Positions 1-61,367 of a stretch of DNA of 64,000 nt are shown piece after piece. The notes under the pieces were generated by a model. That model made no database searches. It was not told the origin of the DNA and was given only the letters and a program-made list of their open reading frames with translations. The stretch is taken from positions 224,001 through 288,000 of the IMG/VR virus record IMGVR_UViG_3300021255_002539; one strand, given 5' to 3'. Source of the stretch: a virus. Lineage: Duplodnaviria > Caudoviricetes. Within the stretch, counting starts at the first letter, position 1; every line of letters begins with the position of its first letter. The position numbers and the translations under genes are program-made.

Positions 1-1354
1 CTATGATGGAACTGTTCTGTATGCATATACACCAGCGAAGATTGCCAGCATGGAGTATCTGCCACCACTTCCATCGAGACCTGGCTTGACTTGCCAAGGG
101 TGGAACTGGACATTGCAGCAGCTAAAGACCTATGTTGCTGCATATGGAAGATGTGAAGTTGGCGCGACCTACACAACTGACGACGGCAAGACCAGGATAA
201 AGCTTACGATACAGGATCCGAAGTACACGACCATTCCAATTGTGTTCCAACAAACCGTGGCAAATGGCGTGAAAGTGAATTGGGGCGATGGATCTGCTGA
301 CCAGACATATGGCGGCACTTCGCAACAGACCATAAGCCACACATATGCGCCATCCGCATATCCTGCCACATATACCATAACATTCCAGGTTACAAGCGGC
401 ACGATGTCGTTCCCAACCTACATAATGGGGATTGACTCCAGATCTTTCCCGAACATGATTGACGAAGTGAACATTGGCAATGGTGTGACGAGTATTGGGT
501 ATTATGCATTCTAGTTTTGCCAGTCCCTTATTTCTATAACTATACCTAGTTCAGTGACTAGTATTTTGGGGTATGCGTTCAATAATTGCTATTCCCTTAC
601 TTCTGTTACGATACCTAGTTCAGTTACCAGCATAGGGACTTATGTGTTCACTCTTTGTCGTTCCCTTGCTTCTATAACCATACCAAGTTCAGTTACCACA
701 ATTGGGACTTATGCATTAGCTAATTGCGCTTCCCTTACTTCTGTTACGATACCTAGTTCGGTTACCAGTATTGGAAATAATGCGTTCTATTGCTGCTATT
801 CCCTTGCTTCTGTTACGATACCTAGTTCAGTAACTAGCATTGGTTAGTATGCGTTCAATTATTGTTATGCCCTTGCTTCTATAACCATACCAAGTTCAGT
901 AACTAACATTGGTTAGTCTGCGTTCAATTAGTGCTATTCACTTGCTTCCATAATCATACCTAATTCAGTCACCAGCATTGGTTAGTCTACATTTAATTAG
1001 TGCCATTCCCTTGCTTCTATAACCATACCAAATTCAGTTAGTAGTGTTTAGTCTTATACATTCATTTAGTGCTATTCCCTTGCTTCTATAACTATACCAA
1101 GTTCAATCACTAGTATTGGAACTCAGGCATTTTACTAGTGTGGTGGCCTCAAGACATTTGACTTCAGGAGAAGCACATCCGTACCAACACTTGCCAATGT
1201 AAACGCATTCTAGTACACACCATCAGTGAAGGAAATTGTCGTTCCAGACTCCCTATACGACACCTGGATTACAGCAACCAATTGGAACTCGTCCACGAAC
1301 CAAATCAAGGAAAGCATCGTAAAGGCGTCAGAATCGTCGCTTGGACCACTATAA
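1..1354 (+). CDS. BspA-type leucine-rich-repeat protein with PKD-like domain (5'-truncated; 10 in-frame TAG read as Gln)
   Basis: Frame of ORFs 50-514 and 554-847 stays open from base 2 to TAA 1352-1354 except TAG at 512, 845, 914, 929, 983, 998, 1049, 1067, 1136, 1211. TpLRR units (SLxSITIPSSVTSIGxxAFxxC) keep register across each TAG. VNWGDGS is PKD-like. Confidence 0.85.
530..1120 (+). repeat. 69-bp imperfect tandem coding repeats (23-aa LRR units)
   Basis: Recurrent cccttgcttctataaccataccaagttcagt-like units at 69-bp spacing. Confidence 0.85.
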
Positions 1355-1379
1355 TTAAACAATGGAGGATTTGACACAA

Positions 1380-1814
1380 ATGGCAGTAATATACGAAGAA
1401 CAAGAAGATGGATTGGTCAAGGCCTATTCTGACCAACACAAGAAGATATTCGGTGGATTCCCAGAGGCCGAATACGATGTCGTCTACGACCCAAAGGACG
1501 CACACAGAACCTACGTGGAGACAGACCATTGGATTGACAGCATCCCAAAGCCAACTTGCAGAACATTCTCCAGGTTGTACATAGAGATGGCAGTCGCCAA
1601 ATTGGGGCTGATAGACCAGTTCGACGCCTTGCTCAACAACATCGAGCTGGCGCCAGGATACACAGCGCATAGGGCGTTCGAGAGGGCCAACGACATCAGC
1701 GAGGACTTCCCTGGGTTTTGGGGATATGTGGAGCAACTGAGGCAGGCCCTTGGGTTGACGATGGAGCAAGTAAACGCGATATTGAACGAATCTGAAATGC
1801 AGAACGAGAGGTGA
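1380..1814 (+). CDS. hypothetical protein, possible tail-fibre assembly chaperone
   Basis: GGAGG at 1364-1368 before ATG 1380. RTFSRLYI motif resembles RRFSKLRL in 4478-5041, and both follow fibre/adhesin genes. Confidence 0.5.
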   Translation: MAVIYEEQEDGLVKAYSDQHKKIFGGFPEAEYDVVYDPKDAHRTYVETDHWIDSIPKPTCRTFSRLYIEMAVAKLGLIDQFDALLNNIELAPGYTAHRAFERANDISEDFPGFWGYVEQLRQALGLTMEQVNAILNESEMQNER

Positions 1815-1821
1815 TTTGAAC

Positions 1822-5352: not shown

Positions 5353-6234
5353 ATGAAGGCGACGATAACCAAGATTGACAACAATGGCACTGAGGTTGTG
5401 TGGGAGGGCGAAGTCTCATCCCCAGAGGAGGCGTTTGACATCTACACTGACGCCATAATGGACAGGAGGGCAGACGACCACTACCTTTGGGATGACTACA
5501 ACAGAATACTGGAAGGGCACAACAAGTTGTACAGAGACAAGCGCATAGGGTTGTTGAAGAAGAATGGGAAGATATACGAGACCTTCCTCAGAGGCCAGTA
5601 CAGCCTGGAACTTGAGATATTCGACGACGATGATGAGGATGACGAGGAGAATTGGTTTGTCGCCGAGAGTTTGGATCCCAAGTACGACGACCAGCCAGAG
5701 AACCAATATGGCGAGAAGTGGTAGATTCTGAGGGGGACATACCTCAACTCCGTACTTGAGTCCATAATGCAGGACATTCAGATTGACCCAACAGAAGATG
5801 GTCCCAAGATGGAAAGACTCTCCCTTGGGGGACTCCACATTTGCGAGGATGGGCATCTCATAGCCGAGATATATGGTGGGGCGAATGGTGGTGGATTCCG
5901 TGGGGTGGAAAGCAACTGGCCCTACTACCTGTCCCTGGTCCGCAAGTTCTTGGGCAAGCTTCTGAACTACGACAATGGGAATATGTTCAAGGATGTCTGG
6001 CTGGTGGATTGGGACAACGACTGCTGCGACGATGTATGGACATTGACATTGGGAATAGAATTGTCGGACCAGGAAAAGCTGCAACTCGCTGAAGATGGAA
6101 AGATGTTCTCAGTAGTTGATCCCACCAAGTTGGATGTTGGTCTGGATGCGGCCGTGGCCGTTGTGTCAAATGAACCAATTGATGTCGCCAATGCGGCAGC
6201 AGCAGTAGCAGCAGAATCCAGGAAGCGAAAATAA
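5353..6234 (+). CDS. acidic hypothetical protein (TAG 5722 read through)
   Basis: ORFs 5353-5724 and 5767-6234 are the same frame, separated only by TAG plus 14 sense codons. Confidence 0.75.
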
Positions 6235-6942: not shown

Positions 6943-6971
6943 TTTACGGACCCACCCCGATGTCGTATAAT
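6943..6971 (+). promoter_or_regulatory. promoter of DNA polymerase (TTTACG-N17-TATAAT) embedded in a 12-bp inverted repeat
   Basis: TTTACG 6943-6948, TATAAT 6966-6971; inverted repeat 6932-6943/6950-6961. Confidence 0.7.
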
Positions 6972-6992
6972 ATAGAAAGGGAAGTTTTAACT

Positions 6993-9863
6993 ATGGTAAA
7001 CATTGACTACACTTTGAGATACGATGTCGAGAAGATTCGCTCTATAATAGAACCAAACGATGGCTACTGCTGGGTATACTACGATCCACTGGGGATGGAC
7101 AGGAAATTGGACGAGAATGGCAGAATCGTATTGAAGTGCTATGAACGCGGTACCCACAAACCCATAGTGGTTGAGGTCAAGGACTTCCCATCAACGCTTT
7201 GGCATCGGACATCCAAGTCAGACGAGATTGCGAAGGCAACAGGCGTAGTGGACGCATATGGGCATCCTGTCGTCCAGGAGACCTTCTTCAACGCAGCAGC
7301 CAGGAAGAAGTGGATTTACGCATGGAAGAAGAGGGAGGACTATTGCGACAACCAAATCGTCGAGTGCTACGAGCCATGCGACGAGTTCATGCAGAGCATA
7401 TTCTGGCACGAGGCGCAGGAGGAGACCTTCAACAAGGGGGTTCAAAGGACATTCTTCCTGGATATCGAGACAGAGGTTTCCGAGACCTCCCTCATGCCAT
7501 GGAAGGCTGTTGACAAGATGCTCATGATAACGGTTCTGGACTCCAAGGACTGGAAGTTCCACACATGGTCTCTGAAGCCCTGTGCAAAGTTGTCTGACAA
7601 CCACGAGGTATACGACTTCAACGACGACGAGGCTGCGATGCTCAAGCACTTCCTCAAGTTCTGGGCAAGCAACTACCCAGATGTCGTGTGTGGATGGAAC
7701 TCGAAGTGGTACGACATGCCCTACATCGTCAGGAGAATCGAGAATGTCCTGGGGAGGAAGTGTGCGCGGTTCCTGTCCCCGATGGAGGACTACAGGATTG
7801 TCCACGAGAAGTCCGATAAGAAGGACGAGAACGGGAAGTGGATTGAGAAGGACGACATCGAGTGGGTGAACATAGCTGGTCTGTTCCAGGCTGACGACCT
7901 CATCCTCTACTCCAAGAAGTTTCAAGTGAAGGCTGCATTGGATGGCGGCTATGGTCTGTCCAATGTAGGTCTTGCAGAGGGATTGGGCGCGAAGGTGGCA
8001 TACGAGACCACGCTCAAGGATCTCTACCTCACTGATTGGCAGAAGTTCTACGAGTACAACGTCCGAGATGTCGACTTGTTGGCTGAGATTGAGAAGAAGT
8101 GCAAGTTGATTCCTCTGGCGAGGACTGTTGCTGGCTTCGGGTTGACGAACTACGACTACATCTACCAATCAGCCCCATACCTGGTGCCAACGATAACGAT
8201 ATTCTGCAGAAAGCATCGAGAGAAGATGGTGTTCAACTCATACGCCAACAACTTCCGCGAGAAGGTGAGGTTCGAGGGCGCATGGGTCGTGCCTCCATCT
8301 GAAGGAAGATATTCATATGGTACTGCGACAATTGACTTCAACTCGCTTTACCCATCGGCAATGCGGATGATGAACCTCTCTGTTGAGACCTATGTTGGGC
8401 GCATAGACGATGGCTACACTGGCGAAGGTGGCTTGGACAACGATTGGATGACCAGGGGTGGCATAGATGGCTACCCAGAGGATTATGTGTTCAAGTTGGT
8501 GATAGACAGGGTTGACATGAAGGATCCAATCTACAAGGAGATTGACGCAAAGACGCTCAAGGTTCTGCTGGGCACGAAGTTGATTATTTGCCCAACGAAC
8601 ATGACACTGTTCTTAAAGCACGAGGTCAAGAGGGGAGTCATCGCAGACTGGGCCGAGGTGTTCTTCAACCGAAGGAAGGCGACAAAGGGCGAGATGTTCA
8701 AGTGCGACCTGGACGCGGACAAGTGCCAGGATCCAGTGGAAAAGGAGAGGCTATTGACCAGAAAGGAAAATCTGCACAATCTCCAATACGCACTCAAGAT
8801 TTGCTTAAATTCGATTTACGGGGCCTTGTCGACGACAGGATGCCCATTTCTACATTCCATTGGACTTGCTCAATCAGTGACAAGGGCAGGGAGATTCTGT
8901 AACTACAATGGAAGATTGTTCTATGGTGAATGGCTTAAGGAGAACTATGGAATAGACGATTCGTATAAAATCACCTGCGGTGGCGACACCGATTCGAATT
9001 TTTTGAACCTTGAAGCAGTAACCAAGGACTTCATCAAGAAGTATGGTTGGGACGAGGACATGAACAACTGGACTGACGAGCAGAAGCTTCAGATGTTCGC
9101 GTATATGCAGAAGTTCACGGACGAATATCTTGTTCCACATGTCCAAGAATTGGTGACAAGGGAATTCCACACATCCAACGCGAAGCCCATGAAGTATGGC
9201 TTGGAATACATGACCAGTGGTGGAATTTTCGAGGGCAAGAAGCACTACATAGTACACAAGATAGTGGACGAGGGGCCAAAGGTCGTGAACAAGTTCAAAT
9301 ATACTGGAATCGAGTTGAAGAAAGCCGTGGTCCCACCTGAAATCAAGAAGTTCATGAAGGACATCTACTTCACCGCAGTACTGGACCCGAAGTTCAATCT
9401 GGAGGCAGCAAGGAAGAAGATGGACGAGGTGTATCAGGAGATCTTGAAGATGAACCCCAACCAACTCGCCAAGTGGCAGGGATATGGAACAGAATCCCAA
9501 ATGGATGGATTCTTGGTGGAGTCAAAGGGTGCCACTGGCATTGGCAAGTGCGCCAACTACTACAACCAGATTGTGAAGAAATTGGGCATGGACAACAAGT
9601 ATGCGTTGATAAATGTCGGGGACAAGGTTCAGACAATCTACATAAAGCCAACGAACAAGTTTGGAATAAACCAAATTGGCTTTCCACCAAAGCAGTGGCC
9701 AGAGGAGTTCAACGACATATTCGAGATTGACTACCCAAAGATGATGGAGAAGGTCGTAATATCCCCATTGAAGGGAATGCTCAAGGCGTTGGGGATGGAC
9801 AGCTTGATGAAGTACGATCCAAGTGTTGTTGCCAATTTGGAATACAGCATCGACGACATTTGA
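6993..9863 (+). CDS. family B DNA polymerase with 3'-5' exonuclease (T4 gp43-like)
   Basis: Exo motifs DIET, GWNSKWYD, YNVRD; polymerase motifs DFNSLYPS, KICLNSIYG, GDTDS, KKHY; no in-frame TAG. Confidence 0.96.
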   Translation: MVNIDYTLRYDVEKIRSIIEPNDGYCWVYYDPLGMDRKLDENGRIVLKCYERGTHKPIVVEVKDFPSTLWHRTSKSDEIAKATGVVDAYGHPVVQETFFNAAARKKWIYAWKKREDYCDNQIVECYEPCDEFMQSIFWHEAQEETFNKGVQRTFFLDIETEVSETSLMPWKAVDKMLMITVLDSKDWKFHTWSLKPCAKLSDNHEVYDFNDDEAAMLKHFLKFWASNYPDVVCGWNSKWYDMPYIVRRIENVLGRKCARFLSPMEDYRIVHEKSDKKDENGKWIEKDDIEWVNIAGLFQADDLILYSKKFQVKAALDGGYGLSNVGLAEGLGAKVAYETTLKDLYLTDWQKFYEYNVRDVDLLAEIEKKCKLIPLARTVAGFGLTNYDYIYQSAPYLVPTITIFCRKHREKMVFNSYANNFREKVRFEGAWVVPPSEGRYSYGTATIDFNSLYPSAMRMMNLSVETYVGRIDDGYTGEGGLDNDWMTRGGIDGYPEDYVFKLVIDRVDMKDPIYKEIDAKTLKVLLGTKLIICPTNMTLFLKHEVKRGVIADWAEVFFNRRKATKGEMFKCDLDADKCQDPVEKERLLTRKENLHNLQYALKICLNSIYGALSTTGCPFLHSIGLAQSVTRAGRFCNYNGRLFYGEWLKENYGIDDSYKITCGGDTDSNFLNLEAVTKDFIKKYGWDEDMNNWTDEQKLQMFAYMQKFTDEYLVPHVQELVTREFHTSNAKPMKYGLEYMTSGGIFEGKKHYIVHKIVDEGPKVVNKFKYTGIELKKAVVPPEIKKFMKDIYFTAVLDPKFNLEAARKKMDEVYQEILKMNPNQLAKWQGYGTESQMDGFLVESKGATGIGKCANYYNQIVKKLGMDNKYALINVGDKVQTIYIKPTNKFGINQIGFPPKQWPEEFNDIFEIDYPKMMEKVVISPLKGMLKALGMDSLMKYDPSVVANLEYSIDDI

Positions 9864-12441: not shown

Positions 12442-12480
12442 GCTTTTGGTGTGTTGATGTTCTGAAATCCCAAAAGAATG

Positions 12481-12487
12481 GTAAATA
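12481..12487 (+). promoter_or_regulatory. putative late promoter GTAAATA
   Basis: Downstream of the terminator, upstream of the giant recoded gene. Confidence 0.6.
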
Positions 12488-12519
12488 CCACATAGACAAT
12501 TCAGGGAACATAGACACAG

Positions 12520-15500
12520 ATGAACACATCATTGACAAGACCACAGTCCCTTTAGGAACTATACAAGACATACTTCGCCTTTGCGAACAAGTTTCAGTTC
12601 ACTGCCCTTCTGAGGAACTACATTCAGAACGAGGAATGGAAGGACAAGAGCCAGGAGAGGGTATGGTCGTTGATTTCGAGGATATCGGACGATCTTGGGG
12701 CAGTCTTCACGGACGACATCGTGAACTATACGCGCAATGTCGTGGATGTGAACACCTGCAAGGTTCCTCAGTTCCTGGAGCAGTGCAAGATGTTGTCCTA
12801 CAATCTGGAGCACATCAAGAACTCGTATGGGTTCTTCCCCAAGCAGATACAGTGCCTGGTGGACTTGTTCTCTGTGAACCCAGAGTATCTGATTGGCAAC
12901 TCCAGCAACCACATCCTCTCTGACCAGGTAATCAAGGAGATATTGGTGTACATCAAGGATAATGCCACATCTACTGTGACATTCACGAACCAGGATGTTG
13001 TGGACAGGCTGATTGACGATCCGCATGGACTGGTCGATGGCGACAACTACTACAACTTCGTCGTGTCGCTTTTCTACACTACATTGGTGGAGGCGTTGTC
13101 GGCGAAGTACTCAGACGAGGATGGTCAGCCAATCGTGTTCAACTTGTTGTGGTGGGAGATGTAGAACAGGGACATCATACTGGACAACTTGAAGGGCTAC
13201 AAGTCCTGGGTGGACAGGTACATCTCCAACGAGATTGAGCATCCCCTGAACGACCAAGGTCTACAGAACACGATATGGAGCACGGTCCAGGCGGTCAAGA
13301 ATCAGAAGAAGATGTCCCCAAGGTTCAACCCATTCAAGTTGGCAGACGAAATCTACTTCAATGGCTTGAACCCCACCAACAAGCTGACTTAGGACGAATT
13401 GGATCTCATTGGGACTGTGCTTGACTACCACGCGAGGACGAAGTACAACTATCAGGAGTAGTAGTTCTCGGACGACCAAAGCACGCAATTCGCCTACTAC
13501 CGAGAGCTTGAGTTTTGTGGATATGTGAAGATGGTGATGTTCGTCCTGAACAACTTGAACAGCTTTGACTTGTCCAACTTGTCCTACGATGTCCCCACCA
13601 ACAAGTTCATACAATATGGCACGGACGATTGCCTGAAGGTGGCTTAGATATTCAACGATGGTGAGGGGCATTTGGTGCAGATGCCAAATGGGGATGTCGC
13701 CTTGAACCACAAGGATGTCGTGTTGAGGGTGGCGAAGTTCCTGGCAAACTATGTCTTCCACATACAGCATCTGAGGGAGAACGCGAAGACGATTGCCTGC
13801 AAGCATGCGATGAGGGGTACTGCTGGGTTGCTCGCGCATGTTGTGAACGACTATCTGGTGAAGGAATTGCCATCTGTGAGGGACAACTTGCTTCAGGGCT
13901 CTGATGTGGACATTCGGTTCCAATGGGAGATTCAGCCAGACAAGTTCCTCAACTATGGCAATGTGAAGGTATTGGAGTACATGGACGACAACGAGTACTT
14001 CAACATAGACCCAATAGAGGATGTGAGGTTCACCGAGAGGACGAACGCGAGGTATTGGGAGAAGTTGTCGGAGATTGGCTATGACGAGTCTCTTGGCGCA
14101 TTGACGAAGCGCGAGATACACGACCTATACGCCAATGTACTTGGAATTGGGAAGCTTCAGCCAGACAGGGAGAGTTCGTTTGACGATGTTCAGGACTTCC
14201 TGGTGGACTTGTTCAAGATTGGCGCGAACCCAGTGAAGTGGGACTTCGGTGATGGGGACTTCATGAATCCAATAGACTACGATCCATTGAGGGATGCGGT
14301 CTACGATGTCGAGGGCAAGTATGGCTACACAAAGGCCGAGAGGATGAAGGTTCAGACCAACACGGGGCTGAGGAAGAACCAGGAGGCGCAGTTCCTGGAG
14401 TATAGTGGTCAGAATCTGGAGGACGATGCCATACAGGGCATATACGACTACATGAACAACCAGTTGTTCTATTGGAAGAACACCGACTACTCGTCCCATG
14501 TCCTGCACCCGTTCATGTACAACCTCAAGTTGTGGAACCGCCTGGACAACATCATAGTCAACGGCTATAGGGACTACATCAACAACGACCTGGTGAAGCA
14601 CATGTCCTCCAAGGTGAAGTTCGACGAGTTGGTTGGGGAGTTTGGCGAGTGCAGAAGGTTCTGGAAGTACAATGTGGTGGACATGACAGGCTACACCACC
14701 AGATACGAGGCTGCCGTGAAGGACGAACACAAGGACGACGCCAACAAGACGACGAGCCAATTGACTGGGTACGATGGGTTGTTCTACCCAGACGCAGCAT
14801 TGGAGTTCCTTCGGATATACGCAGACGAGAGGTCAACATCGACAGGAGAGAGGTTCCAGATTCCAACTTGGTTCTTCGTCAACCCACAGGATCTTCTGGA
14901 TTCGCAGAAGACCGAATTGTTGGAATACTTCAAGTCCCACGCATTCATCAGAGCGATACACTCAATCTACTGGCAATTGTCTGGTGGGGTGCCCAATTTC
15001 GCGGAGTATGCGGTGAGCCGATTCTACCTTGATTGGTACTCGCACCTCAACTACACGAGGGCTGAGTATCAGAAGATTGCTATGCAGTTGTGGTATTGGC
15101 GGGACAGGGTCAAGGAGCTGATTCAGACCGAGTACCCAATCAAGAAGTACTGTCTGGACATCCAAGGCAACTCCCTGTTGTTGGTATCCACATTCGGTCC
15201 GGACGAGGTGGATTCGAACAGATTTCTGATAGACCTGCAAATCGAGCAGAACAGGGTGCAGACAGAGGCGAATGGCAACTTGAACATCCATGTGCCATTC
15301 TGCGAGGACAAGCTCGTGCAGCCCAGTGAGATGTGGGTGAGGTGGAAGTCAAACCCAATCGCTTTCCCAGCATTCGACATAGAGTGGAACCAGAAGACTG
15401 GCGACCAGCAATTCGACTTGAACTTCAGAAAGGACGACGACAACACCGAGATGGGGCAGTTGACCCACGCCAACAACGACTGCAACGACGACTTCCATGT

Positions 15501-18500
15501 GGTGATTGAGGACTGGCTGGCGAAGTATGGGGACAAGATCAATTGGGAGAGGGGTGGCTCAAACAGGCTGCCGGTGTTCTTCGACATGGAGCAATCTGCG
15601 AATGTGTTGGCGTTGGCGTCCTGGCACACATTCCAGAGGAAGGTGGATGGGGTGGCCGAACTGGACGAACTCGGAAACCCAATGTACGAGACCCTTTGTG
15701 GAAAGAACCCGCTTCACATATTCTCGGTGGAGAGGACAAGCACATCCACATTGGAGTACAATTGGACGAAGTACATCCAGTCAAACGACAAGATCTTCGC
15801 AGAGGATTACCTCAAGGGAATGCTTTTCGACGCATACCACTATTGCCCCGCGAATGGAACGCTTATGGTGCCACTCTACAGATTCACCTGTTCAGATTCA
15901 GATGACTAGGGGGACATCCACGGGCAGAAGGTGGATATCAACATGTGGTTCATTCCTGCGCAAATACTCAAAGACGACAGGTTCGTGGCGCAAAGGCGGA
16001 TATTCATGGATCGACCATCCAACTCTCCCTTGGACTTGAACCAGCTTCTGGATGCTGGGTAGAACGCAAGCAGGTTCCTGTTCGATCACCCAGTGAAGGT
16101 GTGCAGGAACACCAACCTCGTTTTCTCGCCATATGAGGACCAGAATGGGATGAACAAGGTGAAGTGCGCGTTCCTGGGCGTGTATATGGACAAGACGCCA
16201 GATCTGAAGAAGGACAACCACAACATCAAGTCGATATCCTTCAATACTGGCAATGGAGCCACCAGATACGAATACGACTCGCAATCTCCACTTGACCTTG
16301 GGTTGGTGAAGAACGGGTACTACATGCAGAACGACATCGCTGACATATACGAAGGTACTGATCCAGACTGCTGGCCAGATGGCGATTTCAGAAAGCGCAG
16401 GTACATCGACCAGGGGATATCGAGGGAATGCTTCAACTCATACGACTCCAACGACAAGTATGTGTTCGTCTTGGAATTTCAGCAATCTGTGGACAACGCC
16501 ATTCTGTTCAACAACTCCAGTGACCTCCCGATGGCATATGCCTACAACATACTGTCGGATGCTGGCTACATCCCCCACTTCGCGTACCAATCCCTCGTGA
16601 AGTACAAGGGCGATGTCGATGGAACAGCATATACATGGGAGAGCAAGTACTTGTCTGGCAAGGATCACCTTCAGTTCGAGTTGCTGGGTCTGGACGACAA
16701 GCAGATTCCATTGGCCTACGAGAACATGGAGAGGATGATCGTTGAGGACACCACAGACGATTGCCGCACCATAGTGAACCCAGCCAAGTTGATGGAGGAC
16801 ATCTACCGAGTGTGGTGCGAGACCAAGGGAGTGAAGTAGAACCCAGAGGACCAGTACGAGTCCTACTTCGAGAACGAGTACAAGGGATACGACAACCCAG
16901 AACTGGAGTTTGACGACGACAACGAGGCTGTTTGGGACGACACCGAGGACTTTGAGCTGACATTGCCATAGTTGAACGACCCATACGCATACGACAATCC
17001 AGATGTGTTCAGAAGGTTGCTTGACGAGTACTACATCACAGTGGTCCGGACAGACAATGGGGAGTTGGCGAACGAGAGGAAGTACATTCTGCCCCCAACC
17101 AGCATATCCGAACTTCTGTTCAACAACGACGCCTCCACCAACGATGGCTATGTGAGGTGTTCTGGGTTGGTGGAATACGCAGATCCAACGGTTCAGGACA
17201 ACCACTATGTCCCAGAGCAAGTCGTGTTCACGGGCACCCAAAACCCCTTCGCCTACGACCAGGAGGGCAATCGGGTGTACTCCAAGTCAGAACTGCTCCA
17301 ATATGGCAATGGCATTAGGGGCGTGGACGACATCTATGTTGGATTCGACATCAGAACTGAGGATGGCGAGGAACCAATTCGGGACAAGCAAGGCAACATA
17401 GTGTCCGAAGAAGAGGTAGTGGCGGGGCGGATAGTGGTGAATGTGCATACCAGACCGGTTCAACACAAGTTCATCAGACCAATCGTCAAGTTCAAGAAGT
17501 CCCTTAGACCATTGGATGCCAAGAACCCAAGCTTGGTTGACAGGTTGCACAACGAGCAGAACATTATACCTGCTGGCTCAATTAGGGTGATACTCTCGCA
17601 CAGAAACATGGACAACCTGGCGAAGTACCACATCCTCAACACATCGTCCAACCTCTACTTCAATGGCTCCTTGCCAAAGAATGGATTGAACCAGTTCAAG
17701 TACTCAGACTTCAAGTTCTCCAAGACCGTGCATCTTGAGCAAACCGATGATGGGTGGAAGTCCACGGAGAATGACGCCAAGGGCAATCCAGTACTGGAAT
17801 TCACCAACGAACAGATTTCTGGCCAGATTCCACCATATTCGGTTTCCATCAACAAGGGCAAGGTTGCTGAATTGTGGTATCTTGAACAAGATGGCATTCA
17901 AGGCGATGGCGAACATCAAATAGAACCAGGAAGAAGGGGATTTGACCACTTCCAGGAGAATGGACCAACCTATCCAATCCCAGATGTTGGTGGATTCAAG
18001 TGGGCGCATCTGGCGAAGGAAGTGCCACTCAGATACCTCGACTACCTCTATATCAAGCGCGGAAGGCTGTCCTTCAAGATAAGCGAGGAATCCGAGTCCT
18101 TCACAGACTTGATGTCCAGGCTGCCATCCTTCCACATAGACGATGAATTGAGGAACAAGATGGCGGATTTGAACGATGTGCAGATCCTCAAGGACTACTC
18201 CACATTCGTCCACCAAAGCGAGAACCCAGAGGTTGTCCGAGCATGCGGCAGCTTCAATCCACTGTTGGTGAACTCGATTGTGCGTCCTGGCGTGAAGTAG
18301 ATGGAGACCCATAGGTATCTGCTCAAGGAGAATCAGAGTTCAGATGGCATCTTCCAATTGGACGAGAATGGACACCCAATCGAGATAGGCGACGATGGCA
18401 AACCACTTAGGTACGACGAAGATGGCAATGTACTCAATCCACTGCCAATCGAGGTGATTTGCGCCAACGAAGGAGGTGAGCCGAACACCATGATTGAACT

Positions 18501-19728
18501 CAGCACAGGGAATACAGCAATCCCCCTCATGCTCCAGTTCGAGGATGGAGAGCTTGACGACTACCTCAAGATATACGCCAACTATGTCAGGGTTCAGGAC
18601 AAGCACGGGGACTTCCACTACGATCTCTACTTCAACATCCAGAACCTGTTCAACTCCCCATTCGAGTACATATCCACCGTGACGAAGCAACCCAATGTGC
18701 TGGTCATCCCAGACTCCTACCTCTACTTGACTGGCGACAAGTACACCGACCAAGGAGACCACAACGAGGTTGACGCCGACAAGATGAAGGTCATCAAGGA
18801 TGGTGGGGAGCTGTCCATATATGGGCAGGTCAAGACATATTCTGATTGCTTGCTCTCTGACGCCAAGACAATCAAGATGTTCACATACAGGATATACAAC
18901 ATCTCTGACGACAAGCCCAAGTTCCTCATCCAGAAGACCTTTGACATCACCAAGTCCTCCCTCAGGAACAATATTGAGAGGAAGGTGGAGGTGAAGTTCT
19001 CGGATGTGCTGTGGACGATTGACGAGAACCAGTTTGAGTTTGCAGATGCCAACCTCAAGGACGATTTCAGAATACTGAACCAGGATGTTGTCGTTGTCCA
19101 ACCAATCCACATCAACTGCCATTGGGACAAGGACGACGACTCCAGGGTACGGACGCTATCCTTCGACATCATGCACGACACCATAGACTTCGCCAATGTC
19201 CCTGCGCTGGGTCCATATTGGATGCAGGCCAGGACATTGAACTGCGAGGTGATGTAGACAGAGGATGTTGGCGACAAGGTGTTCAAGAAGCCCTACTACG
19301 ACCATTGGTCTGACTCGAACATGAGGTTGGTTGTTGACGAGAACACTGGAATCCCCAGGCTCACATTGACCTTCAACGACGATGCTGACTTCAACTTCGA
19401 GACCATATACCTGAAGTGGGTTCTGCCAAAGGGCTGCAGGATAATGGACAGCATCGACAGAATGGGTGGGTATGTGTTCAGTTCCACGCCTATGAACATA
19501 GTCGCCGACTGTGGAAATGCTGCCGTCGTTCCCCAGATTGAGACTTCCACTGGACACATAGTGGCTCGGGTCAAGAGACCAGACAGAATGTACCTCGGGC
19601 TGGAACATTCCTCCACCCAGAGGATGAATGGGTATGTCATATCGAACTTGGCAGAGGAAATTCACAAGGCATTGGTGAGGGGCGAGAGGAACCCAACACT
19701 TGAAGGAACAGACAGAAATGGAGGTTGA
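12520..19728 (+). CDS. giant (~2,400 aa) putative virion structural protein, possibly baseplate (12 in-frame TAG)
   Basis: Seven track ORFs (12670, 13189, 13672, 16093, 16972, 18301, 19279) share one frame. Gaps contain only TAG (12553, 13162, 13390, 13459, 13462, 13645, 15907, 16060, 16837, 16969, 18298, 19255); ends at TGA. Start could also be ATG 12478. Function is inferred. Confidence 0.8.
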
Positions 19729-28001: not shown

Positions 28002-28007
28002 ATGAAC

Positions 28008-33141: not shown

Positions 33142-33149
33142 GATGATAC

Positions 33150-33156
33150 TATTTAC
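33150..33156 (-). promoter_or_regulatory. putative late promoter GTAAATA
   Basis: 8 nt upstream of ATG 33141, no SD. Confidence 0.65.
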
Positions 33157-33180
33157 CATTTCTGTGGCAAATAGGCATCA

Positions 33181-34964: not shown

Positions 34965-35071
34965 GTTGTTTGTCCGTCCTGTTTTGATATTTGATGTATA
35001 TCCTTCTTCAATTATACGAAACCGCCCCACCCAAATTCAGGATGAGGCGATTCTCGCTTGTTGTGCATCAA

Positions 35072-38579: not shown

Positions 38580-39032
38580 TTAGTCAGCGTCCCATTCTGG
38601 GGAGTCCTCGTCTCCAATCTCGAACCACTTCGCCAAGCCATTTGGCACTGGTTGCCCATTCTCGTCCACATCCACTCGGTACAGGAACTCCTTCTTCGTG
38701 TGAGCCAACGCCACGATGTCGTTCAGCTTTGGCGTGACCTCACCACCCCCTATTATGAGGACAGTGCCCTTTTGCGACATTTGCTCGTTCGGGTCAGTCT
38801 CTGTCTGGCCTATGTACCTCACAATCGAAGGATCAGACCAACCTTTCGTATAACATGTGCGCCGCCAATGGAAATCCACATAGATGTTCTACTCGTCCTC
38901 CACGAACATTATCTGTCCAGTGGAATATGGAGGAACGAAATCGTGCTCTGATTCCTTTGTCAGTGGAACGCCAGGATCGTTGAAACTGCCATCGTCCTTC
39001 CTCACTATCTTGAATGTGACTTTCGCACCCAT
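38580..39032 (-). CDS. short member of the same fibre-associated family (TAG 38889)
   Basis: GQIMFVEDE*NIY and KEFLY...WFEIGDE resemble motifs of the two downstream genes. Confidence 0.7.
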
Positions 39033-42206: not shown

Positions 42207-42506
42207 TCATTCATCTTCTTGCAGGAGGTATAGTAGAAGTGTAATCAGATCGGAGTCAAGGATGTCATCCTCGTAGTCAGACGGTTCTCCAAGTTCTTGC
42301 ATCACCCTGGATTGTTCGTCAAGCTGGTCCAGGTCAACATCCGAGTCGTCTACCTATATGACCTCGTCGGGTGTGTACATCTGCGCCTCCAGTTGTTCGA
42401 TGCTGGGTTCGTAGATGGGGTAGATTTGACGATCTCCGAGGTAGACCGTCACTATGCGTCTTTCCCTAGCATATACTTGCGTGGTTTGTTCGTTCTCTTC
42501 AGCCAT
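42207..42506 (-). CDS. acidic hypothetical protein (99 aa; 1 in-frame TAG; not in ORF track)
   Basis: MAEENEQTTQVYARERRIVTVYLGDRQIYP...; start overlaps the upstream stop. Confidence 0.7.
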
Positions 42507-45359: not shown

Positions 45360-46475
45360 TCATTGGTTTTCCTGGATTATGAAGTAGAATGTGTGTTCGT
45401 CCTTGTTCTCCAGTTCGTTGTATTGCGCCTATGTCAGGAACTGCATGTTGTAGCTGGCCAGATTGCCGAGGTTCTGCACCTTGCGCTCCACCGCCCTCAC
45501 CCGGCTGTCGAGAGCCGAGTCTGCGTCCTCCCTTTGTTCCTGCTCATCCTCAATCATCTCCATCAGTTCAGAGTTTGCCTACGACGAGTGGCCACTTTCT
45601 CCACCACCTCCACCACTTGATGTCGAACCACCCGAACTCTCCAATGTGGAGACTCGGTTCTTCAAGCTGGACACATCCGTCTCAAGTGTCGACACCCTGG
45701 CTCCAATGGAGTTGACTTGACCTTGGATGTCGGTTTGGTTGCTTTGGAGGGTTTCGCAACTGGCGTACAGTGTGTTGAGTCCATCTACCTGGTTGTTCAG
45801 ACCAGCTATGCTTCCCCTGATGGCGTTCAAGTTGCTGTTGAATGTAGATGTCGTGACATATACGCCAGGATCCAGTTCTGTTCCTCCACCTTCTGTTCCA
45901 TTGCGTTCCAGTTCTGCCACTCTGCTTTCGAGGGATGTGACTGACCTGTTCATCGTTCTGACATCCACGCCAATGTTGTTAACGGTCCTTTGGATGGAGT
46001 TTACGCTGGAGGTCAAGGTGGATATGCGCCCATTCAATGTGGATACATCAGACTCCAATGTGGTTATCTATGCGTCAATTTCTGTGACATCCCCCTCCAT
46101 CAGCCCTGTAATGTCCTTCATGTCGGTGACATTGGCAGTGACCTTCTATAGCCTCTCGTACAAGGCGTCTGTCTCGTGGTTGTCCTCGTATTCCTGCATC
46201 TCCCTGGTTCTCAATGATCCATCCTTCACGAACACTCTGTACTTCGTGTCTGGGGAGTTCTCGTCGGTTAGGACGATGTGGTCCCAAGGCCCGTTGTACT
46301 TGCCCGCTACCTTCAGAACATATTCCTTGATCTTGGCGTATAGTTGCTTTGCCCTGATGTCGATGTAGGAATTGATGTAGGCTATGCAGCCCTGAAAGAT
46401 GTGTCCATGTCCGTGTGGGCATGCGCCTGGGTCGGTCTGCCCCGTAGTCAATGTGTTTTCGTCTGATTGCGCCAT
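45360..46475 (-). CDS. coiled-coil fibre/whisker-like structural protein (4 in-frame TAG)
   Basis: Heptad repeats (VSTLETDVSSLKNRVSTLES); C-terminal LT*AQYNELENKDEHTFYFI matches the TQAQYxxL..KD.NT.Y motif; GTAAATA at 46511-46517. Confidence 0.75.
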
Positions 46476-46591: not shown

Positions 46592-47248
46592 TTATGTCAG
46601 GTCTCCAACAAATGTGACATTTACTGTGCTTCCGAACTTCGTTTGATATGCTGTCAAGTATTCAGATTTGACATGGCAACGAGTAGGGTCATTTTCATTG
46701 AAGTCGTCCTTGCCACTATCATCCCAGGTCAAGTTAGTGGGATTTGGATAGCAATAGACATCATTGACATCTGTGCACCCGTAGAACGCATCATACCCGA
46801 TGCTCGTCACGCCATCACCTATGGTGATGCTCGTAAGTCCGCTGCAACCCGAGAACGCAGAATCCCCGATGCTCGTCACGCTGTCCGGTATCGTGATGTT
46901 CGTAATACCATAGCAGGCGTTGAACGCAGCCTACCCAATGTTCGTCACGTTGTTACCAATCGTCACGCTCATAAGATCCCTACATAAGTGGAACGCATAC
47001 TGCCCGATACTCGTTACTGCGCTTCCAATTTCGACTTCTGCTGGATATTTTATCCACGATGGTTCTTGTTCTGTCCCACTTCCTTCTGGCATCAACCCAG
47101 CTGCTATTAATGCTGGGCAATCCATAGAATCTTCTATCAAGTAATCTCCTTCTGTTCCATCGACAAACTTGATGTGCGTCTCAGCCTTTACAATTGGTCC
47201 AGTAGTTATCGTTATGCTGTTCGCTACCAATTTGCTTATCGTAATCAT
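46592..47248 (-). CDS. BspA-type LRR protein (TAG 46931)
   Basis: VTNIG*AAF aligns with neighbouring VTSIGQYAF / VTSIGDSAF repeats. Confidence 0.85.
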
Positions 47249-47255
47249 GTTGTTT

Positions 47256-47528
47256 TCACCTCGTTTGTTTTGTTGTATTATAGTTTTCCAATGCCCGGGC
47301 AATTTGGTCTGGGCAAGAAGTATCCCGATTTCCGCATTTGATTCCCTTCAGTACCTCAATTGCCTCGACCACCCGCATTCCCCGCATCAGACGAATCAAT
47401 ACCGTCAAGTAGCCATGACATCCACCCAATATGGCGATATTGACCAGAGTGTCGTCGCTCTCGTCAACATATACCTTCATCATGGATGGACATATGCCAC
47501 CCTACGGGATGTACTCAAATGCTGTCAC
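47256..47528 (-). CDS. TSCPD-domain protein (TIGR03905-like; TAG 47502)
   Basis: YIP*GGIC...GGCHG...GIKCGNRDTSCPDQIA; the first Cys motif is reached only through the TAG. Confidence 0.85.
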
Positions 47529-48853: not shown

Positions 48854-49375
48854 TCACGACAACTTCAATCTGTACTTTCCATTGCCAAGTTTTTTCACTG
48901 ACAGTCCCTTGATTTGCTTCAAAACCTCAAGTGTCTCGTCGTGTTCGTCAGTCGCCTCAGAGACAAAGCCCTTCAAGTCAATTGTCTCGACTTCCTCGAA
49001 TGGTCCGTATTTCCTGTCGAAGTCGTCGTCAAGTTCATAATTTCTCTTGCCAATGCTTGACTTGGATATGTTCCGAAGTCTGGTTGAGTTGAGGTTGTCA
49101 GTTTTCAATACCTTAACTGACTTGCACCCGCGCTTCTTCAACTGAGATAGCACGGCATCCTTGTCCCGTTTGGAAATCTTCAATATGGATGTTTTGCACA
49201 GAACTGGATTATACCCCAATTCCAGAAACATCGCGTTGTCGAACTTGCTCTTGATGTTGTCGTCGTCTTCAGATGTTTTCATGTCAGATTCGTCCTTTAC
49301 AGTTACATTGAACCCATATTTCTTGAATTTCCTTGCTTGCTCCTCAAACCACCCCTTGGATTTCTTTTCAGTCAT
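48854..49375 (-). CDS. hypothetical protein
   Basis: 173-aa ORF in operon. Confidence 0.7.
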   Translation of the reverse strand: MTEKKSKGWFEEQARKFKKYGFNVTVKDESDMKTSEDDDNIKSKFDNAMFLELGYNPVLCKTSILKISKRDKDAVLSQLKKRGCKSVKVLKTDNLNSTRLRNISKSSIGKRNYELDDDFDRKYGPFEEVETIDLKGFVSEATDEHDETLEVLKQIKGLSVKKLGNGKYRLKLS

Positions 49376-49790
49376 TGGCTATGCTCTACACATCAAAGTC
49401 TCCCATGTCCCAGAGGTATTCCTTGTCGTCGTCGTTTCTTCGGTACAGGGTTATCTTCCCCAGGCGAAGGAATGGAAACGCCTTTGCTGGATATCGCTTC
49501 CCAATTTCCTTGGAGAGGGCATCCTTGATTTCCTCAAAGGATTTCCAATTGCCAAATTCTGGGTATTCAGTGCACCATTCGAGTTGGTCGTCGATGTCAG
49601 GGATGTTGCGAACCCACACGGATTCGGTGACGTCAGAATATCCACTGGCAAGGTAGACGATTTGCTTTGCCTCAAGTGTCCTGTGGATTTGCTCTTCTGT
49701 TGGCTGGTTTGGTTTTGACATGGCAATTTCCTTGTCCCCCTTGAAGTTGGGGATTGCCAATAGCGAATCAACGAATTTCCTGTTTGTCAT
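49368..49790 (-). CDS. hypothetical protein
   Basis: Reading TAG 49386 through gives TGA 49368, overlapping the next start. Confidence 0.65.
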
Positions 49791-49809
49791 GTCGGTTTCC
49801 TTTTGGTTG

Positions 49810-50325
49810 TCAATCTTCCAAGGCAAATGTGGTTTTGATGTACTCCAATGTGGTCATGCCAGAATCCAATGGTTGGCAGATGATGTCGATTAGGGAGTCG
49901 ATGGAGGAAGCGAACGATTCAGCCACAGCCATCCTCCTGTCCCTGTCCATCAAACCCTCAACATCGAACTTGCTTCTGATTACGCCCATTATCTCCTTTG
50001 GGTCGTCGTATTCGTAGTATTCGACCAGCCACTTCTGAAGGGTTTTCTTCTTGTTGACCTTGCCCTTGATGGTCATTCGCCGCAGGGCATCGACATAGTT
50101 CACCACCTCTGCAGACCAATGCTTGAATGTTGGATTTCCCTTGTCGAACAAGTGGCAGTACTCGCACAAGCACCAATGGGAAGCCAAGGTCATGCTCAGA
50201 CCATCCATTCTGTCGATGAACACCTTCAGGGGAGTGGACATCTCAAGCAGAAATTCTGGATGTCGTCCAAGAACCCGCTTGATGGTGGATTCTGAAGATT
50301 CGTTTGCTATGTCAATCCACTTCAT
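49810..50325 (-). CDS. hypothetical protein (weak DUF29-like appearance)
   Basis: LASHWCL...KHWSAEV pattern; LLEMS motif; TTGACA-N18-TATAAT at 50361-50390. Confidence 0.6.
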   Translation of the reverse strand: MKWIDIANESSESTIKRVLGRHPEFLLEMSTPLKVFIDRMDGLSMTLASHWCLCEYCHLFDKGNPTFKHWSAEVVNYVDALRRMTIKGKVNKKKTLQKWLVEYYEYDDPKEIMGVIRSKFDVEGLMDRDRRMAVAESFASSIDSLIDIICQPLDSGMTTLEYIKTTFALED

Positions 50326-51420: not shown

Positions 51421-52524
51421 TCAATCCAGTACTTCAATCAGTTTTGGTATAATCTCTCCTGACTTCAGGATCTTCACCTTCTTGCCAATCTCCACTCCAA
51501 GGGACTCCATCCAGGTGATGTTGTTTAGGGTGACGCGCTTGACAGTGGTGCCACAAAGCTGAATGGGTTCGAGCAGACCAACAGGCGTGAACTTGCCATT
51601 CGCAGAGGGAGTGCCCCAGTCGATGCCAATGAGGGTGGTTACGCCGACGCCCTGGTTGATTTTGAACGCCTTGCAGCCATCCGGGCGGTACTGGTCCTCG
51701 TTCCTCCATTCGGAATCGCAAATCACAAGTCCATCAGTCTCGTAGGGAAGCTCGTCCTGAGCGGTCTTGAAGAGCCAATCAACGATGTCATCCCCGCGCC
51801 AATCCTGTCCCTTGGGATTGACCAGAACATTGCTGGCAACATTGAATCCCATATCCCCAAGAATTTCAAACTGCTCTTCCTTGGCGTACTGGTTGCCAAG
51901 AATGGTGTAGGGGACGAAAGACACAAGCCTTGCCTCAGTCTCGTTGAACTTCTTGTCTCCATCCTTTCTATTGCAGATTCCTGCACATGCATTCCTCGGA
52001 TTGGCGTACTTGTCCTTGATGGTCTCGAAATCCTCGCGCATAATCACCAACTCGCCACGAATGGAGCCGGTGAAGTTGTCCCAAGCGCCGTGGGGGAGAA
52101 CTGAGGGAAGCCCCTTGACATACTTCGCCTTGGAAGTGATGTCCTGACCAAAGTAGCCATCTCCACGGGTCGTGAGGGAGACGAGTTTGCCATTGCGATA
52201 CTCGGCTCGGGAGGAAATGCCATCAACCTTCGCGGACACGGAGAGCATGTTCTTGACATTCTCCTTGATCCACTTCTTGACAACTTCCGGCTCCTCGGCC
52301 TTCACCTTCTCAAGGCTGCCCATTGTAAACGGATGCTTGACCTTGCCATCCATGTTCTTCTCGATGCTGCCCTCGTTCAGGGTTGAGACGAATGCCTCGT
52401 ACTCGTCCTCTGGCATGGATGCCTTGAGGGATTCGAGCAGGTCGTCGTATTCCTGATCCGTCATGGTGGGTGTTCCGCTGCGGTACGCCTTGTTCGCTTC
52501 AATTATCTGCTCTTTGATGCTCAT
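51421..52524 (-). CDS. ligA: NAD+-dependent DNA ligase, N-terminal part (Ia, adenylation and OB domains)
   Basis: YxxGxPxMTDxEYD, KVDG, TRGDG, RGE, NPRN, DGLV, TPV, SGEIIP; stops before the Zn finger. Confidence 0.92.
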   Translation of the reverse strand: MSIKEQIIEANKAYRSGTPTMTDQEYDDLLESLKASMPEDEYEAFVSTLNEGSIEKNMDGKVKHPFTMGSLEKVKAEEPEVVKKWIKENVKNMLSVSAKVDGISSRAEYRNGKLVSLTTRGDGYFGQDITSKAKYVKGLPSVLPHGAWDNFTGSIRGELVIMREDFETIKDKYANPRNACAGICNRKDGDKKFNETEARLVSFVPYTILGNQYAKEEQFEILGDMGFNVASNVLVNPKGQDWRGDDIVDWLFKTAQDELPYETDGLVICDSEWRNEDQYRPDGCKAFKINQGVGVTTLIGIDWGTPSANGKFTPVGLLEPIQLCGTTVKRVTLNNITWMESLGVEIGKKVKILKSGEIIPKLIEVLD

Positions 52525-54809: not shown

Positions 54810-54837
54810 AGTCTTTGCCTTTCTCAAGTTCACCTAT

Positions 54838-60059: not shown

Positions 60060-60180
60060 GTTCAATGTGTCTCCTTGTTTTGGTTTTCCAATATATTATA
60101 CGACCTTTGTGGGAAAAAGTAAAGATGGATTGGCGAACAGCCAACCCATCTTCCGTACTGTGGATTTGGAGTTTACTCTA

Positions 60181-60783
60181 TTACCACTTCTTGCCATCGA
60201 CACTCTTGAGCTTGAAGCTTGCGGACTTGCCATAGATTGGCATAATCTCGGTCTCCTCCTCGAAGTCGATCTCGCAAGAGCCATCCCAAGCGGTGAACGT
60301 GCCGCCACATGGACAAATGTAGTTGCCAATCACAACACCGTCCAGCTTCTTGACGCGAGAGCAGGTCTCCGTCGTGTCGCCACATGGTGTGCATCCACCA
60401 GTCGTCTTGGTCTTCAACGTGCCCATTCCACAGAATGTGAGGTTGATAAGACCCTCGTCGGCCAGATCATCGTTGACAAATGTCAGCACAGTGGAGACAT
60501 CTGCGTTCTTCTTGCCAAAAACCGCATATGCCATATCGCCATCAAGACTGAGGGTATATGTAGTGTTGGTCTTCTTGAACTTGACAACCAATGTTGCTGT
60601 GGTGTTGGTCGAATCTTCATCCGTAACAACGGTAAGCGTACCATCAACCCTGGTGGATGCTGGAACAAATGCATCCTTGCCAATAGCTGGATACTTCATC
60701 GTTGTCTTGAATGTATAGACATCCGTAGACGCCATTGCGAACATGCTTGCAACAAGGGCAAGCCCCATGATCAGTTTCTTCAT
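60181..60783 (-). CDS. secreted Cys-containing beta-rich protein of bacterial type
   Basis: Signal peptide MKKLIMGLALVASMFAMA; GCTPCG/CPCG motifs; hairpin at 60122-60152 downstream. Confidence 0.75.
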   Translation of the reverse strand: MKKLIMGLALVASMFAMASTDVYTFKTTMKYPAIGKDAFVPASTRVDGTLTVVTDEDSTNTTATLVVKFKKTNTTYTLSLDGDMAYAVFGKKNADVSTVLTFVNDDLADEGLINLTFCGMGTLKTKTTGGCTPCGDTTETCSRVKKLDGVVIGNYICPCGGTFTAWDGSCEIDFEEETEIMPIYGKSASFKLKSVDGKKW

Positions 60784-60965
60784 TGTTTTTCCTCTTTCGT
60801 TTTGTTTTTCTTTGTTTGTTTGTCTTGGATTGGATTCAGGATAACCTCTATCTATCATCCAACTCTGAACATTGAATATTAATTATACGAAATTCCACCA
60901 CCCAAAAGTGGTAAATCGCATGTTGTTGAGATGTATTTACGCAAAACTTGACAAAAACCAATCGT

Positions 60966-61367
60966 TCAGTTGAACATTGGCAATCCATCTGCGCTGCCGT
61001 GCTCCTTTTTCCATTGTTTCTTGAATGCCTTTGCCAGTTCCCTCATGGTGTCCTTGTTTCCTGTCGTCTCCTCGTATACTGGTATCACATACATGCACAT
61101 GAAGGGGAACATCTGCACGTTGTTTGGTCTGCCAAGGTATTCCTTTGCTGCCTCCAGTGGATTGTCGTTGAAGGAGTACATTGGGCACCTTGGACCACAT
61201 TTGTCGTGTTCCCTCAACCAGCAGTTTTGGCAGCGTTCCTTCTTCCCAGCCAAGATGTCGGTTCCATATCTGACGAGAATCAGGTTTCTGGCGTCCATGT
61301 CAACTGGGTTGCCCTGGATGTCCAGTCCCAGTTTAGTCAACGCCTCGTCTAGTTCCTATAGTGTCAT
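60966..61367 (-). CDS. Cys-rich hypothetical protein (TAG at codon 4)
   Basis: ATG ACA CTA TAG GAA CTA GAC in frame with ORF 60966-61340; TATAAT 7 nt upstream. Confidence 0.65.

Follow-up and report, generated by a model that had tools for sequence, protein, structure and literature searches.

Amber codons probably read as glutamine in a 414-kb gut or rumen phage that carries a candidate tRNA for decoding them

Does a phage whose genes are crossed by one amber codon after another read those codons as an amino acid and, if so, which one and by what means? The question arises from a 64,000-nucleotide stretch of viral DNA (the window), which comprises bases 224,001-288,000 of IMG/VR record IMGVR_UViG_3300021255_002539. 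The record is that of a gut or rumen phage; it is 414,060 bp long with 48% GC, has direct terminal repeats and is rated complete. The standard code (table 11) breaks the window up into many short open reading frames (ORFs), and 17 window ORFs are open only with TAG as a sense codon. A model given the letters of the window and a list of its ORFs had proposed that TAG is recoded genome-wide, most likely to glutamine (Gln, Q). We compared this original prediction with the complete genome and with related phages. From these sequence comparisons, we place the probability that TAG is a Gln sense codon in the 414-kb phage at about 0.9.

Genes were called with a home-made program that scores codon log-odds and was trained on long standard-code ORFs. 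Its output for the window held 57 in-frame TAGs. A curated list, to which we added two genes that had escaped the caller (a phosphoesterase at 31877-32614 and a TSCPD gene at 47256-47528, both on the minus strand; positions are those of the window unless given as genome positions), held 59 TAGs in 17 genes, compared to 57 in 17 genes in the original prediction. The gap between 59 and 57 is made up of TAGs near uncertain starts, namely the one at codon 6 of 48854-49396 and those at codons 6 and 12 of 12478-19728. No TAA or TGA was found inside any of the 17 curated frames, and all 17 genes stop at TAA or TGA. The frames obtained with TAG as sense include ones of 2416 residues (14 TAGs), 948 residues (8), 792 residues (5) and, at the window edge, 450 residues (10). 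The 2416-residue frame (12478..19728, plus strand) encodes a clade-conserved protein without a match in Pfam or PHROG; its TAG count is 12 if Met15 is the start.

Pfam and PHROG domains (LRR_5, Peptidase_C92, Metallophos/phrog_547 and TSCPD) continue across the TAGs. LRR_5, a leucine-rich repeat (LRR) family, was matched in four window proteins, with a best E of 6e-92. This best match is to a BspA-type LRR protein, open at the window edge (2..1354, plus strand; also phrog_35892), which has 10 in-frame TAGs, three of them within its best LRR_5 stretch (residues 188-314). Most of its TAGs fall at either of two positions that recur from repeat to repeat, IG*xAF and AFx*C, where the asterisk stands for TAG. 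A 236-residue BspA-type LRR protein (46592..47302, minus) matches LRR_5 over residues 89-185 (E 5.5e-27), across its single TAG at codon 124; the repeat with the TAG reads IG*AAF, and a paralogous repeat within the same protein reads IGQYAF. The other two are a 792-residue BspA-type LRR protein (39761..42139, minus; LRR_5 E 2e-46 in five stretches; five TAGs, including CF*GTG) and an LRR-like 330-residue protein with a weak LRR_5 match (30870..31862, minus; E 6.5e-6; two TAGs, including MF*EC). These four are the most TAG-dense genes, and one LRR_5 protein has 10 TAGs within its last 280 codons. The LRR TAGs sit at the same two repeat positions as if they had been spread by repeat duplication.

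Three enzyme-like or domain-bearing genes have TAGs close to the functional motifs named in the original prediction. In the calcineurin-like phosphoesterase (31877..32614, minus; phrog_547 E 6e-33 over residues 30-243, with Metallophos and Metallophos_2), the first of three TAGs directly follows the metal-binding motif SDIHFGY. A permuted papain-like amidase of the NlpC/P60-like Peptidase_C92 family (32506..33159, minus) also has three TAGs; its PF05708 match (E 8e-16, residues 58-175) spans the TAG at codon 136, and one TAG lies between the His and Cys regions. The 90-residue TSCPD-domain protein (47256..47528, minus; PF12637 E 1e-19, residues 11-83) has its only TAG at codon 9, ahead of the first Cys motif. 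A coiled-coil protein with a phage tail-tip C-terminal domain (45360..46475, minus; Pfam Phage_tail_C and coiled-coil families, with tail, needle and fibritin-like PHROG matches) has four TAGs, including LT*AQY. All the sequence contexts quoted in the original prediction (IG*AAF/IGQYAF, LT*AQY, CF*GTG and MF*EC) were found in place.

We then compared TAG with the other two stop codons across the whole genome, by counting stops flanked both before and after by 50 codons with coding signal in the same frame. Depending on the threshold, there were 88-156 such TAGs, 22-38 TAAs and 14-37 TGAs, so that TAG was 4-6 times more common. The TAA and TGA counts are the background of neighboring genes that share a frame. 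Coding density with the score-based caller rose from 0.856 (85 genes) under the standard code to 0.894 (64 genes) with TAG as sense in the window, and from 0.847 to 0.872 in the genome, where the number of genes of at least 1000 residues increased from 3 to 11. Reading TGA or TAA as sense lowered density in each case; the density check that had been proposed for TAG as sense against the standard code therefore gave a gain, with this home-made caller, for TAG alone. The gain is modest, about 3-4 points by the same caller, and would fall below the 10% cut-off of one jumbo-phage survey (PMC13037316) if Prodigal agrees. A density comparison based on greedy choice of the longest ORF was discarded as uninformative because removing any stop codon lengthens ORFs.

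To assign the residue, we used a related phage of 418,068 bp (IMG/VR UViG 3300021400_000025; here G001), which was found with the 2416-residue protein and whose DNA was taken as 21 regions. It is recoded as well, with 289 in-frame TAGs in 123 genes. The two phages share 229 reciprocal best hits with a median identity of 61%, and these gave 191 well-aligned TAG columns, both directions counted. The partner residue was Q in 60 columns, K in 19, E in 17, D in 14, TAG in 14, T in 10, R in 9 and S in 9. When amino-acid likelihoods were calculated with substitution frequencies from the same alignments, over the 172 columns with a residue, Q was the best fit by 148 natural-log units (nats) over E. 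The profile of TAG columns in this pair resembles that of ordinary Q columns. One example is a 293-residue protein of unassigned function (5353..6234, plus), whose single TAG (codon 124) corresponds to Q in the G001 orthologue within the conserved context GEKW[TAG/Q]I.

Single-protein or two-sequence-alignment searches of viral contigs gave one full relative, G001, and a metagenome scan with the two-sequence alignment of the 2416-residue family gave ten more loci (L034-L043). Ten orthologous frames of the gene are open throughout, five of them complete (2343-2775 residues), with 1-22 TAGs and no TAA or TGA, and not one of the 11 family members is open unless TAG is taken as sense. The 11-row alignment has 70 columns with at least one TAG, and the other rows have Q in 108 of 375 cells (CAG in 86, CAA in 22). 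In several of these columns Q is otherwise invariant, and TAG alternates with CAG or CAA. For the phosphoesterase, 48 database homologues were found and 31 aligned; the aligned homologues run through all three TAG columns, and a homologue with 79% identity has Q at the first of them in an otherwise identical context. Homologues that end at these TAGs, or TAG columns with no residue preference, had been named as grounds for doubt. Both the orthologues of the 2416-residue gene and the phosphoesterase homologues instead read through, and Q dominates against G001 and in the 11-member family, in favor of Gln as first proposed.

These results bear on whether the in-frame TAGs are simply damage, in the form of pseudogenes, sequencing or assembly errors, or a contig that is chimeric or in decay. 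In favor of such an explanation there is only the fact that table 11 gives in-frame stops. TAG alone is affected, the interrupted frames retain coding signal and domains, the pattern recurs in ten relatives that were assembled independently, in part at identical columns, and the record is complete with direct terminal repeats. Damage is already refuted by the specificity for TAG together with the conservation across assemblies.

Several observations weigh against Gln, or against how well its reading is documented. The gene caller is crude and is not Prodigal. Q is retained at 35% of TAG columns compared to 54% of ordinary Q columns in the phage/G001 pair, so that TAG columns are less conserved, and some single window TAG columns align with R, W, E or D instead of Q. 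The three TAG columns of the C92 amidase, for instance, are R, W and K in the G001 orthologue; codons 18 and 22, in IWS*FLT*FG, face R and W (TGG) in IWSRFLTWFG and are exceptions to the Gln pattern. We therefore considered whether TAG might encode another amino acid, such as Lys, Glu, pyrrolysine or (as in code 16) Leu, or be read ambiguously as more than one. Single window columns that align with K, E, R, W, S or D would suit this explanation, as would the first phosphoesterase TAG column, after SDIHFGY, which is mostly K in distant homologues (K 18, Q 4 and E 3 among the 31). ARAGORN calls any CUA tRNA 'Pyl', and one analysis of huge phages left the residue open (PMC7162821). However, the likelihood for Q is ahead of those for both E and K by about 150 nats over the 172 columns, TAG swaps with CAG and CAA in otherwise invariant Q columns, K, E and D are normal substitutes for Q in the phage/G001 pair, and the candidate tRNA described below has a Gln-type acceptor end. 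We judge it very improbable that TAG stands for anything but Gln.

No tRNA was detected in the 64-kb window, and a CUA anticodon was absent from the 28 tRNAs (plus a transfer-messenger RNA, tmRNA) reported by ARAGORN and from the 21 matches to the Rfam tRNA model in the whole genome. A scan for anticodon arms found exactly one perfect CUA arm in the genome, and the search for such a tRNA outside the window, which had been suggested as a check, thereby yielded one candidate. It is 79 nucleotides (nt) long, lies at genome positions 297,902-297,980 on the minus strand, 9.9 kb beyond the window, and sits in a 182-bp intergenic gap after a gene for a 1550-residue protein. The minimum-free-energy fold of the 79-nt RNA is a cloverleaf (-26.5 kcal/mol) with stems of 7, 4, 5 and 5 bp. 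The RNA has U1:A72, G2:C71, G10, a G73 discriminator and an encoded CCA. U1:A72, G73 and G10 are acceptor and D-stem elements used by Escherichia coli glutaminyl-tRNA synthetase (GlnRS), and by E. coli tRNA-Gln identity we take the acceptor and D-stem features of the candidate to be of the Gln type. In G001, ARAGORN detects a tRNA-CUA directly after the orthologue of the same 1550-residue gene, at the syntenic spot. From its fold, identity elements and position, we predict that the phage tRNA(CUA) at 297,902-297,980 is the TAG decoder, and we hold this to be likely.

The RNA is atypical, which counts against its role as the decoder: its D loop lacks GG, its T loop has 8 nt, and both ARAGORN and Rfam miss it. 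Running ARAGORN with introns or lowered thresholds produced noise only, and an Rfam search of a 4-kb locus found nothing. A T-loop segment, GGCA, is complementary to TGCC in the D loop. The exact anticodon arm recurs in five unrelated viral contigs, in two of them as canonical tRNA-CUA genes; none of the five is a relative. An 86-nt form of the CUA tRNA (acceptor stem TAGTGTA/TACACTA) was rejected, as the 79-nt register gives a regular cloverleaf with CCA.

An alternative is that the suppressor comes from the host or a co-infecting phage, or that the host itself reads TAG as sense, and that the 79-nt RNA is no decoder. The failure of standard tRNA finders to recognize the phage candidate agrees with this, as do published frequencies: TAG suppressor tRNAs were detected in only about 40% of TAG-recoded phages in one study (10.1101/2021.08.26.457843) and in about 61% of alternative-code jumbo phages in a survey that raises the same possibility (PMC13037316). 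Set against it are the four regular stems of the candidate, its place as the sole perfect CUA arm of the genome, its Gln-type acceptor, encoded CCA and intergenic site, and the canonical tRNA-CUA at the syntenic position in G001. Nor is any bacterium known to read TAG as Gln. We consider such a source improbable and retain the phage's own tRNA as the predicted decoder.

The rest of the genome was also to be searched for a GlnRS or a release factor. Neither was found: the complete genome had no match to the RF-1/RF-2 domain (PF00472) or to the class-Ic synthetase/GlnRS family (PF00749), and controls matched in both searches. In the mechanism that we propose, the host uses the standard code, its glutamine-charging enzyme would charge the phage tRNA(CUA), and the charged tRNA would decode TAG by outcompeting host release factor 1. 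In such a host, genes that carry TAG (those for the LRR adhesin-like, fibre-like and large clade-specific proteins and the amidase) would give a full-length product only after the tRNA has accumulated. Genes free of TAG (polymerase, ligase, sigma factor, and nucleotide and DNA-modification enzymes) would read the same under both codes and could be expressed at the outset. The scheme applies to a new lineage the code-switch model already published for recoded phages (Borges et al., 10.1101/2021.08.26.457843), and we give the timing it implies, with TAG-bearing proteins completed only once the tRNA is plentiful, roughly even odds.

The distribution of TAG among genes is the material on which this timing can be judged. 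Genome-wide, there are 317 in-frame TAGs in 108 genes. The term genome-wide in the original prediction is accurate for where TAGs are located and inaccurate for genes, about three quarters of which have none. Of all Gln codons, about 7% are TAG (270 TAG, 1313 CAA and 2250 CAG). TAG-free genes number 257 of 344, compared to 190 +/- 6 expected; the highest value in 2000 simulations was 211. In the window, TAG is missing from every gene recognizable as one for replication, transcription, nucleotide metabolism or DNA modification. In ten window genes of the replication and nucleotide-metabolism type, about 4150 codons contain no TAG, and about 10.6 are expected at the genome-wide rate. The TAG-free set comprises family B DNA polymerase (PolB), two pieces of an NAD-dependent ligase, a sigma factor, a DNA methyltransferase, a dUTPase/dCTP-deaminase-like protein, a thymidylate-synthase-like protein, a GT2 glycosyltransferase, a TET-associated glycosyltransferase and a ferritin-like protein. 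TAG-bearing window genes encode LRR adhesin-like proteins, fibre- or tail-tip-like proteins, the large clade-specific protein, the amidase, the phosphoesterase and small proteins.

Within genes, the TAG rate in regions aligned with G001 was 2.8-3.1 per 1000 codons in the first fifth of the gene and 1.2-2.0 elsewhere, a difference of about two-fold; no enrichment of TAG over the first 30 codons emerged from the same aligned regions. At the N-terminus of the 2416-residue gene (12478-12560), two neighboring Gln columns, RP[Q/TAG]SL[Q/TAG]ELY, toggle between CAG or CAA and TAG. Each of the 11 relatives keeps at least one TAG in these columns, and the raw chance that none has been lost is about 0.04, with phylogeny ignored. 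Judged from the alignment, the pair looks like a retained 'amber gate'.

The same unevenness could have a simpler origin. TAG may be read as Gln fully and constitutively, with no regulatory role, if where it occurs is shaped only by mutation pressure, which would turn CAG into TAG in AT-rich genes that evolve fast, and by purifying selection on conserved ones. The TAG share of Gln codons climbs as gene GC falls (rho -0.34, p 4e-7), and mutation pressure may therefore account for part of the uneven distribution. The AT-rich gene for a 948-residue protein (42499..45345, minus) has 8 TAGs, 17 CAAs and 4 CAGs, the CAGs counted past codon 30; TAG columns are less conserved than CAA/CAG columns; and some probable structural genes have no TAG. 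Other results are harder to fit to constitutive reading, namely the strong over-dispersion of TAG, the absence of TAG from every recognizable replication or nucleotide gene of the window, the N-terminal Q pair in which 11 of 11 relatives keep at least one TAG, which looks like selection, and the presumed termination at TAG by the host when infection starts. We regard reading without a regulatory role as unlikely, though the most serious of the alternatives. The timing model itself has further points to answer besides the trend with GC: it is drawn from gene classes only, and an 879-residue protein with tail-fibre repeats and a 1220-residue protein are both TAG-free, so that the split is not simply one of structural versus replication genes.

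Recoding of TAG to Gln is established in gut phages, including Lak, crAss-like, Garnet, Amethyst and some Agate clades (10.1101/2021.08.26.457843; PMC9523058), and code 15 has been shown at the peptide level in crAss-like phages (PMC9523058). The code change is thus not new biology; the 414-kb phage is a further clear case of documented phage recoding. Like the code-15 gut phages, it has in-frame TAG for Gln, a CUA suppressor tRNA encoded by the phage (here a candidate), an animal-gut habitat, TAG-bearing genes that are mostly structural or late-type in several modules, and many early or replication genes compatible with both codes. Unlike them, at 414 kb (418-434 kb for its relatives) it lies outside the published size ranges of the named clades, and its suppressor tRNA is non-canonical. 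Lak phages measure 562 +/- 44 kb, and the present phage is set apart from them by size, not by a head-to-head comparison of sequences. Its likeness to Lak and crAss-like phages concerns the kind of recoding and not kinship; here the lineage is another one, of about 415-435 kb. Six Lak and two Agate phages encode RF2, whereas this phage does not. Its PolB is only 26-28% identical to those of T4-like phages, the 1220-residue protein had no match in GenBank phage records, and Terminase_6C had no match, which precluded placement by terminase.

Reassignment of UAG in animal-associated huge phages was described as 'TAG to X' by Al-Shayeb et al. (2020; PMC7162821), and rumen and gut jumbo phages have been flagged as code 15 in the survey with a cut-off of 10% density gain (PMC13037316). 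The present phage resembles those in both studies in exceeding 200 kb, in its origin in human or animal samples, in repurposing TAG and in having many tRNAs. It differs from the former in that Gln is supported here by 191 + 70 aligned columns. TAG suppressors are glutaminylated in E. coli (as cited in 10.1101/2021.08.26.457843). The candidate shares with the E. coli supE (glnV) tRNA-Gln(CUA) the CUA anticodon, U1:A72, G73 and G10; it differs in lacking G18G19 and the T-loop consensus, in its 8-nt T loop with 4 nt complementary to the D loop, and in its predicted service to recoding of a whole genome, whereas supE rescues a mutation.

For annotation, table 11 splits about a hundred genes, among them those for the largest proteins and the probable host-binding LRR and fibre proteins, and downstream readings consequently depend on TAG being Gln. 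Code-15 recoding is extended to a lineage outside the named clades, with the residue supported by several hundred aligned columns. Only a quarter of genes carry TAG; the density gain from such partial recoding is therefore small, and genomes of this kind can escape screens with a density threshold. A suppressor tRNA that seems to be missing from a recoded phage can also be present but go undetected by standard finders. What deserves following up is the small gain in density, the retention of TAGs at the N-terminus and the hidden tRNA. More tentatively, these phages might form a distinct gut/rumen clade of about 415-435 kb with a one-component code switch, built on a single restructured tRNA(CUA) and lacking both a phage release factor and a phage synthetase, in which selection keeps amber gates in chosen genes; if density screens miss such genomes, recoding in huge phages is possibly undercounted. 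We offer this broader picture as a possibility that falls short of even odds.

TAGs near gene ends were considered separately. They are not enriched, with 14 within the last 15 codons compared to 12.2 expected from a uniform spread, and in five genes TAG lies 0-1 codon ahead of the TAA or TGA stop. Two genes with short read-through ends had been mentioned originally; we found one, with a TAG-ended standard-code ORF at 49386-49826 (minus) that continues for five further codons to the next TAA/TGA (49368..49826). There, TAG could terminate or add a short tail, and no orthologue was found in G001. Comparison of the TAG-near-end cases with orthologues identified one conserved internal TAG followed by conserved sequence and left the other cases unsettled.

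The remaining TAG-bearing genes of the window are mostly small. On the plus strand, a 161-residue protein (24159..24644; coding score 23) has two TAGs, is open only with TAG as sense and has no family match in Pfam or PHROG searches. The others are on the minus strand: an Ala/Thr/Val-rich, fibre-like 570-residue protein (36758..38470; one TAG at codon 504, open only with TAG as sense), a 150-residue protein (38580..39032; one TAG at codon 48) and an acidic 99-residue protein (42207..42506; one TAG). The TAG-rich 948-residue protein at 42499..45345 has no homologue in G001. Between 40001 and 48000, a region that houses the genes with the highest TAG share, GC is 43-45% compared to 48% overall. 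The single TAG (codon 6) of a 180-residue ORF at 48854..49396 (minus) probably lies upstream of the true start, Met8, and is doubtful as a sense TAG. In a small protein at 60966..61448 (minus), TAG occurs four codons past the probable start (MTL*ELDEAL); the alignment with the G001 orthologue begins at this same Met, and the TAG is matched there by D.

Among the TAG-free genes, PolB (6960..9863, plus; Pfam DNA_pol_B and an exonuclease domain) has no TAG in 967 codons. The NAD-dependent DNA ligase is seemingly split: a Pfam match to the adenylation and OB domains lies at 51421..52524 (minus), the C-terminal part (profile positions 384-650) at 54027-54833 (minus), and the two pieces are about 1.5 kb apart with four small ORFs between them. 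A sigma-70 region-2 protein (phrog_351, RNA polymerase sigma factor) is encoded at 26057-27169 (minus). Genes of the DNA-modification type, all on the minus strand, encode the TET-associated glycosyltransferase (PF20691; 62019-63758), the thymidylate-synthase-like protein (56035-56724), the dUTPase/dCTP-deaminase-like protein (29581-30411), the GT2 glycosyltransferase (33987-35030) and the DNA methyltransferase (27171-28019). This set suggests hypermodified DNA.

Two further candidates for a CUA tRNA, a low-scoring ARAGORN 'tRNA-Pyl' at genome positions 344,895-344,991 and a CUA arm at 346,713, were rejected as they lie inside well-scoring genes. Genome positions 361,964-370,952 hold a minus-strand array of 27 tRNA genes, a tmRNA gene (tag GNDYRMAA) and, at 367,853-367,926, one tRNA-like gene. 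The anticodon loop of this last gene is 6 nt long and of the CAT type, and the gene was rejected as a reader of TAG. G001 has a similar tRNA array, with the tmRNA tag GNDYSMAA.

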